64,000 bases of DNA from Rozella allomycis CSF55 (taxonomy: Eukaryota), in the NCBI GenBank assembly GCA_000442015.1, contig KE561047.1, positions 79,341 to 143,340 of the forward strand, read 5' to 3'. Below the pieces are notes generated by a model, which ran no database searches, was not told the origin of the DNA, and was given only the letters and a program-made list of their open reading frames with translations. Shown here piece after piece: positions 722 through 63,465 of this stretch. Position 1 is the first letter of the stretch. Every line of letters starts with the position of its first letter. The translations under genes were made by a program, and so were the position numbers.

Positions 722-1137
722 ATGTCCAAAGAATTGAAAAGCAAGATAAAAGAGCGTTTGAAAGAAATAAGAGAAGAAATTCCAATTGAAGATCGAGTTT
801 TCGTAACTAGATGGTTAAACAAAATCCGCAAACCAGAATTTGTTGAAGTCACAAAGGAAAACGTTCTCAGTGATCGTTTGAGGGCTGAATACGAACATGT
901 ACCTATCAATTAGTATATATTTTTTCTAGGCATACTCAATTTACCCAAGATGTTTCAAAACTTATCCACGCAGAGCTACTCTTAGTTTTGTTGGTGGTGC
1001 CTTGACGTTCTTGACCATCTTTGTATTCAATGTTAACTATAACATGATTAACGTAATAATAATATAATTTTCGTGATCAGGGAACCACTCATCAAGCTCT
1101 CTCAAGAAATACAAGAAAGATCAAAAAATTGGAATAA
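722..1137 (+). CDS. Hypothetical 118-aa single-pass membrane protein, 3 exons
   Basis: Exons 722-898, 930-1052 and 1081-1137 join in frame via GT-AG introns of 31 and 28 nt. One hydrophobic segment. Confidence 0.55.
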
Positions 1138-1174
1138 ATTTGTTCTTGAATATTATAAGTGTTCATTTATTTAG

Positions 1175-1793
1175 CTATATTAGCCAATCGGGTGTATAGC
1201 CTTCATGATATATCACTAAGTCTGTGTTAAATAATTCAATAAATTGCTGGTCCATGGCCCGTGCCTTGGGGTTTGAAAATCGCCTGTATTCATCAAATAT
1301 TGATGTGAAGGTCCATCCCTGAAGTCTTCTTAGACAGCCTACTAAGCATCCTGTTCTATGCTTTTCCAATATACACAATGGATTTACTTTTCCTTTATTA
1401 CAATGTATCAGTGTCGGTAAATTCCTAGAATCAACAAGTACTGTTAGCGCTTTTGCAATGATATTTTCTGGGATATCAACAAACGGTTCCTTTAATTGAT
1501 TGAAAACCGACTAACCTTATTTCCTGGAACTCCGAATTGATACAACTTTATATTATTCTCATTCAAGAATTGCAGATTTATTTCAGGATAATCTTCGAGG
1601 ATAAGAGTTCTTTTACTTACATCTTAAAATATTACACTATTGACTTCAATTTTAGTTTTTTTATGAATGGGAAATGTCTTTTCTTTGGGAATGAAGATCT
1701 ATATACTCCTGGGCAAACCAAAGAAAAATTTTCGGGTGGGTATAAATCTATCTGGAAAGAGGAGTCTTCTTCGGTGACTATAGTATTGTCCAT
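1175..1793 (-). CDS. SIW14: Siw14/OCA-family (PFA-DSP) phosphatase
   Basis: [18 protein letters not shown] and spliced active site HCNKGKHRTGC. 3 GT-AG micro-introns. Confidence 0.9.
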
Positions 1794-1878
1794 ATTTTCC
1801 TGAAAATTCCTGGCCTCAAAGATTCATTAGAAAACTACAAATACAAAAAAGGAAGAAAAGAGATTTATATGTTTATGT

Positions 1879-2717
1879 CTAATTTAATGAATTAACCGTG
1901 TCATGTATCCAGTCAAGGAAACTTGAAATTTTTGTGTAGACACCGGGATACCCAACTCGACCACATTCTATATTAAACATAAGAAAATAATACCATATCC
2001 CCAGGAGACGATACCGACTATAAATATTTTCCCAGAGCTGTCTGTGACGAAGAGGCCACCGCCCGAATCTCCTTGACAAGTGTCTTTGTTTGCAACGTCT
2101 CCGCCTACACAAAGTTGCTTTCCCATGAAGAAATACTTTTCGTATATCCTCTTACAGATTGAAGGATTAACGATTGGGAGATTAACGAATAATAATGTGG
2201 ACGACAATACAGGTACGCCAAACTTTTGATATCCCCAGCCCAATGCCATTGTCTTGGTACCTTCTCTAGATAGATCACCTTTATCTAGCATTGCGAATTT
2301 CAAAGGCTCGTCATATGAGACAATTTTACGAAGCTTCCATACAGAAATATCGTTTTCATAGTTAACACCATTGTACTTTGGATGTCTTGAAATTTGCACA
2401 ACTGTGAACACTGTAGAATTTTCTGCAGTAGGTGGTAAGTTTATGTTATGTCTATGGACAAATACTCGCAAAGATGATATCGGACATGATGAAATTACAC
2501 AATGACCAGCAGATATGAGAATAGTGTCAGATATTAATGCACCCCCGCAAAAATGGTAACCCGAACATTGAATTGAGGCGGCAAAAGGAAAAATAAACGG
2601 GATCACTGGCTCTCCTCCCACTATTCTTTCATCTATATTCTGAGATATTAAGAAATGACAGGACGAAGATCCAAGAAGGCAAAACAGTAGCCCAGATAAG
2701 ATTAGTTTCGCTTTCAT
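1879..2717 (-). CDS. Secreted trypsin-like S1 serine protease
   Basis: Signal peptide, RIVGG activation site, SAGHC, NDI, DTCQGDSGG, PGVYTKI. One 26-nt intron. Confidence 0.93.
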
Positions 2718-2828
2718 GCAAATTATTGTAAAGCGAATGTATGTTATTGTTTGTTTTTTGTTATCTTTGTTATTGTTGAATAAAAGTCTAAATTTTTGTA
2801 TAAACGAGTAATTAATGAAGTTGATTTA

Positions 2829-60976: not shown

Positions 60977-61485
60977 TATTTCTATATTTTTTTGATCGTC
61001 TTATATATATATTTTGAGTACTTTCTAATGTTTACGAAGAGTTTATGGTATTACCCACGGAATTCTATATTTCACACTTGCCTTTTCTGAATTCCGCGAC
61101 GCATCGCATTTTGTCACTGGCATCTGCAATGTTATCANTTTTTTTTCAATGGATACATTTTGCACCGGTATATTTTGATACAATCTTGCACGACGAGTTT
61201 ATGAAACAAATTTCACAAAGGTTTAATTTTTTGAGGTGAGCGGTTAAGATGTCTTAAAATTGATATTCTATATTAACAAACGATTCGTGGGCGACGGATG
61301 GTCTCCAGAGTAATTTGTAATTAACAGCGTGCCGAAAAATTGAGTGAAAATAGTGAAGATATATTTGAAGTCATTACATGTTCTAGAACTGGAGGAAAAT
61401 TACTAATACATGACTGGACACAAATCATACGTCATCCCTGAAATGTGATTGAGTATTCTCTTCCATGGTAACCATCGGAATGTAA

Positions 61486-62541
61486 ATGTTGACGTTTAAC
61501 TTTGTACCCTTTCATGTCGATGAAACTAGACTTACTTTTGTTCTAATTATGTCATTGATTAACTGGTACTCGTTCTTTCTTGCCTTATTCATGCTCTTTC
61601 TATCTGTTTACGATAGATCTATTATTCGTACCCCAAACACTCTTGCATTGATGCCATTTATATTCACAGAAAGCTTAAAGTCATTTGCGATTGCAAACCT
61701 TCAGCTTGTAATCTATATTGGTGGGGGCTTTTCAATATATGGTGACGCGGGTTGCGCAATCATAGGTTTTATTGCGTTATATGGCTATCCCCTTGAAATG
61801 ATATCATTAGCAACCATAACATATGAACGTTACGCAGTTATTGTGAATTCCAAACGCCAGAGTCCTGCATTTGCTGACACTGTAAAAAAGATCATCTGTG
61901 GTGCTCTCATTATGGCATGCATTTGTACAGTGCCATTATTTTTTGGTCTTGGATATAGGTCAGCTCCCAGTGATGTTTATTGTATCTTGATCTGGCATTC
62001 AAGAGAAATTCCTGACCTCATAGTTTCATTTACAGTACTAGCAATTCTTGGTTTAGGTGTTGTTGCCATTGTGTATATGCAGTTTAAGATATTTAAACTA
62101 TTTCAAAGATCTGCAAATTTGGTGCAGCAAAAAAGCGGGAAACAATCTTCATCAACTGAGGCAAAGAGTTTGAGTAAGGTAATCAGCGTATTTCAAAAAT
62201 CTGCTAATTCATTACAGCAAAAAAGCAGAAAAAGGATTTCATCAAGTGAGCCAAGGAGTTTGGACTCGAATTCACGAAGAAAGTCGACCTTGAATTTGGA
62301 TCAAGAGAAGAAAGTGTTTATACGTGCCATGACTTTTGCCGGTGTTGCTTTTCTTTGTTGGACTCCCTATGTGATTATGATTATCCACAACATGATTACC
62401 GGCACTTCGATTGCTGTCTTTGATATGGTTGGATGCTTTATGGCAAATTCGTTGGCACCTCTGAATTTGACTCTCATGATCTTAATTACTCCTAGATTTA
62501 GAGATGCCGCAAAATCGTTTCTCTTTAAAAGTAGAAATTGA
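61486..62541 (+). CDS. Class A (rhodopsin/opsin-like) GPCR
   Basis: TM3 Cys and YERY, ECL2 YC, TM6 FLCWTPY, helix-8 PRFR. Confidence 0.85.
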   Translation: MLTFNFVPFHVDETRLTFVLIMSLINWYSFFLALFMLFLSVYDRSIIRTPNTLALMPFIFTESLKSFAIANLQLVIYIGGGFSIYGDAGCAIIGFIALYGYPLEMISLATITYERYAVIVNSKRQSPAFADTVKKIICGALIMACICTVPLFFGLGYRSAPSDVYCILIWHSREIPDLIVSFTVLAILGLGVVAIVYMQFKIFKLFQRSANLVQQKSGKQSSSTEAKSLSKVISVFQKSANSLQQKSRKRISSSEPRSLDSNSRRKSTLNLDQEKKVFIRAMTFAGVAFLCWTPYVIMIIHNMITGTSIAVFDMVGCFMANSLAPLNLTLMILITPRFRDAAKSFLFKSRN

Positions 62542-62747
62542 AAATAAATGAAGTTCCAAAGTTCAAAACATTACTATCATTACTCAATGTATGCGATACT
62601 TGATTCTTAATGGGGAATATGAATTGGTTTTAAACTTCTATATTTCCTTGATTTTTGAACTTAGGCTTAAAAGTTAAAACAGAGATGGAAAAATAGAGGC
62701 CTTGCAATGTAGATTGTCAAATAAATTATGTTGCTCTCAGCCACTCA

Positions 62748-62797
62748 GACAGCGTGTCCGAGTGGTTAAGGAGCATGCCTAGAAAGCATGTGGGTTT
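62748..62797 (+). tRNA. tRNA-Ser(AGA), truncated at contig gap
   Basis: Identical to the 5' part of 63784-63864, then N. Confidence 0.85.
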
Positions 62798-62886
62798 NGT
62801 ATTTTCTAATTGGCTAATTCAAGAACTCCATGATAATTGACAATGATATGATATTATATATTTAATACTTTAGTTTTTATTAAATT

Positions 62887-63465
62887 TTAATCGGCCTCTG
62901 TCATGATTGATATGAACTCTTGTTCATTAACTATTCAAGAGCATTTAAAGTAATTACTTTCACCGTCATTATCCAAGTCAAATTCATCAATCATAGCTTG
63001 CAGTTCCTCATCATCGATATTTTCACCCAACTCCTTTGCAACTCTTCTAAGATTGCGCAAGCTAATTTTCCCTGTTCCATCATCATCAAACAACTGAAAT
63101 GCCTTTTTGATCTCCTCAATAGGATCTCTATCCAAAATTTTCTCAGTCACTATAACAATATGACCAACTTTTTACTGATTTTGTTGAAATCATCAAATTC
63201 CATTAAACCATTTCCACTCTTGTCATAATCCCTGAGTAGTTTCAAAACTTCTGGTTTCTTAATATCAAATCCAAGTGCTCTCATGGCTACCTGGATGAGG
63301 GAAGTTGTTTGTGTTTACCTTTAGTTCGTGATAGTCCAACGCACCGTCCTTGTCTGTGTCAAACAGTTCAAAGGCCTCCTTTATTTCTAATTTTTGTTCT
63401 TCGCTTAATTCTGGGCGGGGCTGGCGTTTCTTTTGCAGGCTTTTGGAGAATGCTAGGTTTGACAT
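62887..63465 (-). CDS. CDC31: Centrin (Cdc31/centrin-3)
   Basis: [38 protein letters not shown]-hands. 3 introns. Confidence 0.93.

Follow-up and report, generated by a model that had tools for sequence, protein, structure and literature searches.

Introduction

Spliceosomal introns with a modal length below 30 nucleotides (nt) are found in a few scattered eukaryotes. A 2026 paper on introns of <30 bp gives ciliates, Microsporidia, dicyemids and myxobolid myxozoans as the known cases, and in its available text Rozella is not listed (PMC13644364). These groups are parasitic or otherwise reduced lineages with a narrow spread of intron lengths and reduced splice motifs. Here we describe the introns of a 64,000-nt stretch of Rozella allomycis CSF55 (assembly GCA_000442015.1, contig KE561047.1, positions 79,341 to 143,340 of the forward strand), hereafter the window, in which all positions are counted from its first letter. 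Its introns resemble those of the ultra-short groups in mode, spread and weak motifs, and Rozella is likewise a reduced parasite. Two features of the window, introns ending in TG and tandem unit introns, are unreported for those groups in the portion of the 2026 paper that is accessible (PMC13644364). Microsporidia, the sister lineage of Rozella, keep few introns, which are similarly tiny according to the available part of PMC6349667. Rozella differs from them in being intron-rich, with the accessible text of Lim et al. giving a density of 2.5 introns per kb (PMC8476143).

Hints of short introns in Rozella have appeared before. Whelan et al. mention two introns of ~30 nt in Rozella S23, lacking the microsporidian motifs (available text of PMC6349667), and Ciobanu et al. 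report a range of fungal intron medians of 29-197 bp, with the species unnamed in the accessible text (PMC8042348). The Paramicrosporidium paper does not mention introns, and no account of TG acceptors, tandem introns or a length window in Rozella turned up in our literature search. The present analysis follows up a sequence-only reading of the window, which proposed ~27-nt introns with relaxed acceptors and modular double introns and knew of no description of this combination. That claim of novelty stands in part: tiny Rozella introns had already been noted in passing (PMC6349667), whilst TG acceptors, the length window and the tandem introns were not found in the literature as far as its texts are available.

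We consider it probable, judging from the DNA and the proteins it encodes, that introns in this genome are of nearly fixed size and that their 3' splice site is picked by position, with AG preferred, TG serving as a substitute and double-length introns consisting of two units. The evidence for each part is given below, followed by the alternatives.

Introns are of nearly constant length and begin with GTA

Every intron was called on the basis of reading frames, homology and public protein models. We used a gene-finder based on dynamic programming over codon log-odds, ATG and stop signals, and introns. With a flat length prior (15-100 nt) and only GT..AG allowed, 51 introns were placed, 28 of them at 26-29 nt. 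The trained gene-finder called 83, and a later run called 94 with relaxed acceptors and 92 with GT-AG only. A high-confidence set of 80 introns was drawn from genes scoring at least 19, taking GT-AG introns of at most 40 nt together with two introns found by eye. Making introns cheap in the gene-finder produced hundreds of false ones, so that under relaxed rules introns can be traced anywhere. A brute listing of GT..NN bridges over all pairs of open reading frames (ORFs) returned noise only, and apparent long introns of 63, 71, 88, 104 and 115 nt were due to insertion of a long terminal repeat (LTR) element, to N gaps or to separate genes.

In the 80-intron set, lengths were 26 nt (20 introns), 27 nt (27), 28 nt (19), 29 nt (8), 30 nt (4), 31 nt (1) and 34 nt (1). 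The mode is thus 27 nt, and 79 of the 80 introns lie between 26 and 31 nt, giving the modal length below 30 nt and the narrow spread of an ultra-short regime. All 80 begin with GTA, consistent with the GT of U2-type introns, and 79% carry A at +4. The TG-ending and double introns described below also begin with GTA. These counts agree with the lengths of about 27 nt and mostly GTA starts that had been proposed. As a control on the choice of donor, GTA-started bridges between two open, coding-like frames were counted: 23 ended in AG at 26-29 nt, compared with 2-5 AG ends at 25-31 nt for each of six other trinucleotides.

Beyond the donor, sequence signals were sparse. The introns consist of 41% A, 34% T, 18% G and 7% C. 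None of the 80 contains CTRAC, and YTRAY occurs in 24 compared with 18.8 in shuffled sequences; the U2-type branch-site consensus (YNYTRAY or CTRAC) was therefore not recovered. Expectation-maximisation gave as its best motif an AATTTA-like sequence of 2.7 bits (log-likelihood ratio 28.6, versus 20.2 +/- 2.7 in eight Markov nulls), leaving TTnA as a very weak internal motif. A pyrimidine tract was also lacking, with a pyrimidine fraction of 0.46 at positions -14 to -3 and A at 52-64% at -5 and -4, and the last four bases were all purines in 27 of the 80. The absence of a polypyrimidine tract and of CTRAC and the frequency of purine-run ends had all been noticed by eye, and all persist in the counted set. 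U12-type signals (RTATCC donor, TCCTTAAC branch site) were not seen, as 0/80 introns start with GTATCC or ATATCC and 0/80 contain CCTTAAC.

Removal of these introns restores conserved proteins. The models of SDH1, of a Yak1-like kinase and of mitoribosomal L19 equal public proteins, and Pfam matches run continuously across introns of NIP7, of the lipoate-protein ligase LplA and of an inositol 5-phosphatase. Taken together, the frames and homologies indicate that the tiny introns of the window are real.

SDH1 (22746..24808, + strand) illustrates the pattern, with six GTA..AG introns at 22842-22867 (26 nt), 22941-22967 (27), 23159-23185 (27), 23463-23489 (27), 23733-23760 (28) and 23977-24005 (29). 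Its last exon is 100% identical to the public protein P0001, which bears the NCBI name succinate dehydrogenase flavoprotein, and the whole model is gap-free against P0001 and two chytrid homologues. In the type III glutamine synthetase gene (GSIII; 20091..22455, - strand), the gene-finder placed GTA..AG introns at 22048-22074 (27 nt), 21874-21899 (26), 21582-21609 (28) and 21374-21401 (28), and the last exon matches Pfam Gln-synt_C and Gln-synt_C-ter. The lengths previously read for SDH1 (26, 27, 27, 27, 28, 29) and for GSIII (27, 26, 28, 28) were reproduced exactly. The public SDH1 model begins at 22871; an exon with an ATG at 22746, followed by the 26-nt intron, would add a presequence-like N-terminus.

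Further genes carry introns of the same size. Three-frame reading of the CTP synthase gene (2829..4663, - strand) gave six GTA..AG introns of 28, 27, 30, 29, 26 and 27 nt, and three-frame reading with Pfam gave three in NIP7 (17573..18201, - strand) of 29, 29 and 28 nt, again all GTA..AG. The Yak1-like DYRK kinase gene (47862..50214, + strand) has introns of 28, 55, 31, 28, 27, 27 and 27 nt, and its translation equals the public protein P0150 over 709/709 residues. In the lipoate-protein ligase gene (- strand), PF21948 runs over profile positions 1-40 and then 41-70 across a 26-nt GTA..AG intron at 5705..5730.

Acceptors are probably placed by distance, and AG is strongly preferred

Within the 80-intron set, 22 AGs that would give lengths of 20-25 nt are left unused, bearing out the earlier impression that nearer AGs are skipped. 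A simple rule, that AGs less than 26 nt from the donor are ignored and the next one is the acceptor, holds in 78 of the 80. One of the two exceptions was set by the length prior and the other is a doubtful 34-nt intron in a TBC gene. We also checked 25 single introns independently by public protein identity, Pfam continuity or conserved frame. The rule held in 25/25, with two AGs at 24 nt and two at 25 nt bypassed; in the CTP synthase intron 3447-3475, for example, the acceptor is the AG at 29 nt and not that at 25 nt. Among the supported single introns the longest measures 31 nt. A first-AG rule on its own would give a long tail of lengths, but 79/80 introns fall within six bases, pointing to an upper limit or to strong pressure towards the minimum. 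On sequence grounds, placement by distance is thus well supported at its lower limit and plausible at its upper limit.

AG itself remains important. When NG acceptors were scored almost like AG, 90 of 94 introns still ended in AG, as expected of U2-type introns, and two of the four non-AG calls were artefacts, one being antisense with score 0 and the other bridging an assembly joint. Restricting the gene-finder to GT-AG cost almost no score relative to the relaxed run. In the NIP7 intron 18001-18029, a TG at 26 nt was ruled out as the acceptor in favour of the AG at 29 nt by the continuity of PF17833, which runs over 20-44 and then 46-80 with one position left for the split codon. The sequence-only reading had suggested that a splice site chosen mainly by distance needs little more than a terminal G. 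Its distance component survives in the lower edge (25/25), in the single introns of at most 31 nt and in doubles made of two units; its terminal-G component fails against the 90/94 AG ends and the NIP7 choice, and the only change seen at -2 is from A to T. As far as these sequences indicate, introns still end in AG as a rule, and TG takes its place only rarely.

This pattern is related to a familiar one. In the second step of splicing, the first AG past a minimum distance from the branch point is used by scanning, and AGs that lie too near are bypassed. The Rozella introns differ from branch-point scanning in a threshold that is measurable from the donor (25 versus 26 nt), in an apparent upper limit of ~31 nt and in having no definable branch motif.

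TG-ending introns in an inositol 5-phosphatase family

The best TG-ending introns lie in two copies of an OCRL/INPP5B-like inositol 5-phosphatase gene. The intact copy (12474..13621, - strand) is cut on its 5' side by an N at 13622, where the 5' part is lost, but is open over ~300 codons and retains the catalytic motifs. Three-frame reading placed four introns in it: X at 13473-13501 (29 nt, ending in TG), Y at 13308-13333 (26 nt, TG), and two of 27 nt ending in AG at 13101-13127 and 12594-12620. The acceptor of another intron, W, is a third TG, ending at 13612. The second copy (38812..40550, + strand) is a pseudogene in which W spans 40194-40221 (28 nt) and X', the counterpart of X, 40300-40328 (29 nt), both ending in TG. 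Compared with the intact copy it has lost 32 nt and 10 nt in two deletions, has gained 2 nt in an insertion and carries an in-frame TAA at 40164-40166. By self-BLAST the copies are 82% identical, and the TGs are common to both. As both copies have the TGs despite a divergence of 18%, over which one decayed (four breaks in ~450 nt) and the other stayed open, the TGs are probably compatible with function.

Homology places these acceptors at the TGs. For W, PF22669 aligns over 170-205 straight through the stop codon and then over 206-230 from the TG acceptor; with the alternative, an in-frame AG at 40 nt, the profile would start at ~210 (residue 2 aligns to 211). For X, the profile covers 206-241 and then 243-287, the split Ser codon supplying position 242, and the sole nearby AG, at 33 nt, is out of frame. 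Y has no AG in frame. The TG model at X and Y is gap-free against nine homologues. P0121, a public R. allomycis model from another contig, 98% identical and compared here with 13101-13611 (- strand), keeps AG acceptors and lacks four (EKRR) and six (KIKLID) aligned residues. Since these residues are kept in all nine homologues, P0121 is likely mis-annotated through the AG rule. The TG introns end at 26-29 nt despite AGs at 32-41 nt, and none of them, including the TBC case below, has an AG at 26-31 nt. Thus, three TG-ending introns of 28, 29 and 26 nt in the 5-phosphatase family are supported by homology.

A fourth case is ambiguous because Pfam coverage is absent at the junction. In the RabGAP-TBC gene (58881-60653, - strand), the intron is either 28 nt ending in TG (59984-60011) or 34 nt ending in AG (59978-60011), with an out-of-frame AG at 32 nt. 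About five introns ending in TG or CG had been reported initially; three TG ends stand by homology and one is ambiguous, whilst no CG- or GG-ending intron in the window was supported and several other non-AG candidates were rejected. Among these, an AC-ending candidate at 40140-40169 merely masks the in-frame TAA inside Pfam-aligned coding sequence of the pseudogene, the CG-ending 20469-20495 is the antisense call with score 0, and the CG at 26 nt in 58459-58487 has an AG available at 29 nt. Non-AG candidates at 56325 and 62179 are chance matches within exons. An AT-ending candidate at 43385-43410, in a MULE-like gene and beside an A10 run, was not counted as supported.

Human TG 3' splice sites (Szafranski et al. 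2007, PMC2374985) offer the closest described parallel, being likewise U2-like apart from the TG, with a GT donor. In the available text of that study they are alternative sites in 36 genes, whereas the Rozella TG would be the sole productive acceptor, with no AG in the length window.

Two further observations concern the intact 5-phosphatase gene. Its RhoGAP-like tail contains a repeat with a period of ~382 nt (12057-12118 versus 12439-12500), and a fragment of this tail occurs again just upstream of the N at 13622.

Double-length introns divide into two unit introns

The only supported introns longer than 31 nt in the window are two of 54-55 nt. One lies in the Yak1-like kinase gene at 48111..48165 (55 nt, + strand) and divides into units 48111-48138 (28 nt) and 48139-48165 (27 nt), both GTA..AG. 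Removal of the whole 55 nt leaves the protein gap-free against P0150 and against 8/9 homologues covering the junction. A 40-nt alternative, which would add five residues partly matched by one homologue only and with a 3-residue insertion, was rejected. The other lies in the mitoribosomal L19 gene (28201-29071, - strand) at 28903..28956 (54 nt) and divides into units 28929-28956 (28 nt) and 28903-28928 (26 nt), again both GTA..AG. The public protein P0270 equals the L19 model with all 54 nt removed (248/248 residues). Since the L19 presequence region lacks homology, the support here comes from the gene model and the open frame. P0270 ends 14 residues short of the open-frame stop (28201-28245, - strand).

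In both doubles an AG ends at 28 nt and a GTA starts at 29 nt, and counted from this inner GTA the second unit obeys the rule too, closing at the first AG that lies 26 nt or more away. The chance of such an AG|GTA split in intron-like sequence is ~0.0013-0.0018 for each. A scan for adjacent units returned 11 matches, only three with GTA at the inner boundary. A third look-alike, 5712-5770, was false: the true intron is the 5705..5730 intron of the lipoate-protein ligase, and as PF21948 runs across it, the first 'unit' of the look-alike is coding. The two double-length introns said to split cleanly into unit introns were thus recovered, as 28 + 27 and 28 + 26 nt at AG|GTA, and both are spliced out whole in public models. 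Similarity between the two units of a double did not exceed that of random intron pairs, which score at least as high in 77% (Yak1) and 8% (L19) of cases, and an origin of the doubles by tandem duplication thus gained no support.

Each interruption of ~55 nt would consist of two complete unit introns head to tail, with zero exon between them and the same rule applied twice. A first splice to the AG at 28 nt would join the upstream exon to the next GTA, which would act as a new donor. The AG|GT juxtaposition inside the interruption, present in both doubles, is that of the zero-length exons of recursive splicing in long animal introns, where it allows removal in two steps (PMC5126111, PMC2773006). 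Those introns measure tens of kilobases in the available text of these papers, compared with steps of 26-28 nt and a total of 54-55 nt in Rozella. Stwintrons of Pezizomycotina (PMC9024468, PMC6616335) are likewise complex fungal interruptions removed by consecutive U2-type reactions. As defined in the accessible parts of both sources, a stwintron consists of an outer intron whose donor, branch site or acceptor is interrupted by an inner one; the Rozella units are adjacent and each is complete, and they do not belong to this class.

Gene content and assembly joints of the window

With a G+C content of 31-40%, standard stop codons and three public proteins matching it at 100% (P0001, P0150 and P0270), the window is nuclear DNA of Rozella allomycis as judged by these matches; the source of P0001 and P0150 is named as R. 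allomycis CSF55. Pfam identified CTP synthase, glutamine synthetase III, SDH1, chitin synthase, ATR, DNA ligase IV, NIP7, lipoate ligase and others. Neither Pfam nor Rfam detected splicing factor or snRNA genes in the window, and the Rfam matches were three tRNAs only. An intron-less ORF of 351 aa (61486-62541, + strand) matches the rhodopsin-family 7tm_1 profile (E 3e-17), a family that is mostly animal.

A Ty3/gypsy chromovirus occupies 6618-11481 (- strand), with repeats near 6544-6601 and 9703-9760. Its intron-less ORFs, on the same strand, encode gag-protease-RT-RNaseH (974 aa, 6618-9539) and integrase-chromodomain (508 aa, 9958-11481). The former lies downstream of the latter, the reverse of the normal order, suggesting that two elements lie in tandem or nested. 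On the + strand, a JmjC/cupin gene (5899-6572) seems to extend into the chromovirus. The gene with a weak MULE transposase match (42845-44697, + strand) changes frame at its A10 run (43411-43420), and a homopolymer error, decay of the gene or an odd intron would each account for this change.

Fifteen single Ns are present, at 6632, 9681, 9973, 11427, 11571, 12279, 13622, 18428, 42469, 44763, 46147, 55324, 56384, 61138 and 62798. They behave like contig joints; that at 13622 cuts a gene, and the two at 42469 and 55324 follow an identical half-tRNA-like stretch of 40 bases. In the ATR gene (joint at 56343..56412, + strand), the N at 56384 is flanked on both sides by 13 identical bases, and the resulting frame shift gives rise to false non-AG 'introns'. 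The non-AG candidates 56388-56412 and 56343-56367 were rejected as products of this joint, and 'introns' adjoining N joints are unsafe.

Discussion

The reading that we consider probable would work as follows. Spliceosomal introns would have shrunk to a nearly fixed size, beginning with GTA(A) and ending at the first AG at least 26 nt downstream. The spliceosome would be unable to reach acceptors less than 26 nt from the donor and would rarely or never use those beyond ~31 nt, and with its reach limited in this way, position rather than sequence context would pick the 3' site. AG would be strongly preferred within that reach, and TG would serve where the length window has no AG, as at the three 5-phosphatase sites and perhaps in the TBC gene.

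Several points weigh against this reading. The evidence comes from 64 kb of one genome, and longer introns may exist elsewhere in it. The length prior of the gene-finder favours 26-30 nt, making the 80-intron set partly dependent on the claim, and this prior decided between AGs three bases apart, for example at 27389-27417. Amongst the TG cases, W has a visible donor in the pseudogene alone, Y could instead use a GTTTTT donor in a 29-nt, AG-ending intron at the cost of only one residue, and the TBC intron has an in-frame AG at 34 nt. All three supported TG sites belong to one multi-copy family of which one copy is a clear pseudogene, and the frame-bridging scan gave no excess of TG ends at 25-31 nt (4 seen, compared with ~5-6 expected from the controls). 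The proposal that the doubles are removed in two steps comes only from their sequence.

A rival explanation takes these for ordinary minimal GT-AG introns, shortened to the smallest workable size by deletion bias and using the first AG past a steric minimum. The TGs would then be mutations in a decaying, redundant family, or sites at which downstream AGs are in fact used, and the doubles would be removed in one step, their inner AG|GTA being coincidental. The persistence of AG under NG tolerance, the AG acceptors of P0121, the confinement of supported TG sites to one partly decayed family and their lack of enrichment all agree with this explanation, and the first-AG-after-minimum rule is textbook second-step scanning. 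We nevertheless regard it as rather unlikely. The AG models drop the 4 + 6 residues kept in all nine homologues and break Pfam continuity, and the nearest AG at X is out of frame. The intact copy stayed open although its TGs predate the 18% divergence, whilst the other copy gained a stop codon and three indels over ~450 nt. Both of the long introns divide at AG|GTA (chance ~0.002 each), and the long tail of lengths predicted by a first-AG rule was not seen. At the opposite extreme, in the strong form of the sequence-only reading, the acceptor might be set by length alone, with a terminal G sufficing and the AG check (U2AF, Prp8) altered. The length window and the TG cases suit this version, which is otherwise very improbable: with A at 41% of intron bases, more than half of the introns would end in something other than AG under a pure NG rule, whereas at most 4/94 do. 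No CG or GG end held up, NIP7 passes over a nearer TG, and length within the 26-31 nt window follows the position of the AG.

Assembly or sequencing errors might also have created the odd cases, given 15 single-N joints in the window, the joint at 56384 that duplicates 13 bases and shifts the ATR frame, the two joints that follow the same half-tRNA-like sequence and the candidate beside an A10 run. Such errors scarcely account for TG sites common to two loci of the window and shared, judged by its gene model, by a third copy on another contig (P0121), nor for doubles in clean sequence far from any N, and we think this explanation extremely unlikely. A stricter form of the position-based reading can be proposed more tentatively, as a possibility that we rate below even: a fixed-gauge spliceosome in which a donor would pair only with an acceptor 26-31 nt away, with A or U at -2, and longer interruptions would be tandem units removed successively.

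How the 3' site is chosen without a pyrimidine tract or a recognisable branch site is an open question for the tiny-intron lineages. Rozella would add an intron-rich case to these, and one amenable to dual culture with its host. It would offer a sharp lower limit (25 versus 26 nt) and an apparent upper one, together with TG acceptors and tandem introns that occur naturally. The findings also have practical consequences for annotation. Gene-finders that insist on AG will mis-model such genes, as in the 5-phosphatase model short of 4 + 6 conserved residues, and the presequence exon seems to be missing from the public SDH1 model. If the fixed gauge is true, Rozella would be a natural system in which intron length, and not sequence context, defines the 3' splice site, and may represent an intermediate toward the stripped-down splicing of Microsporidia.

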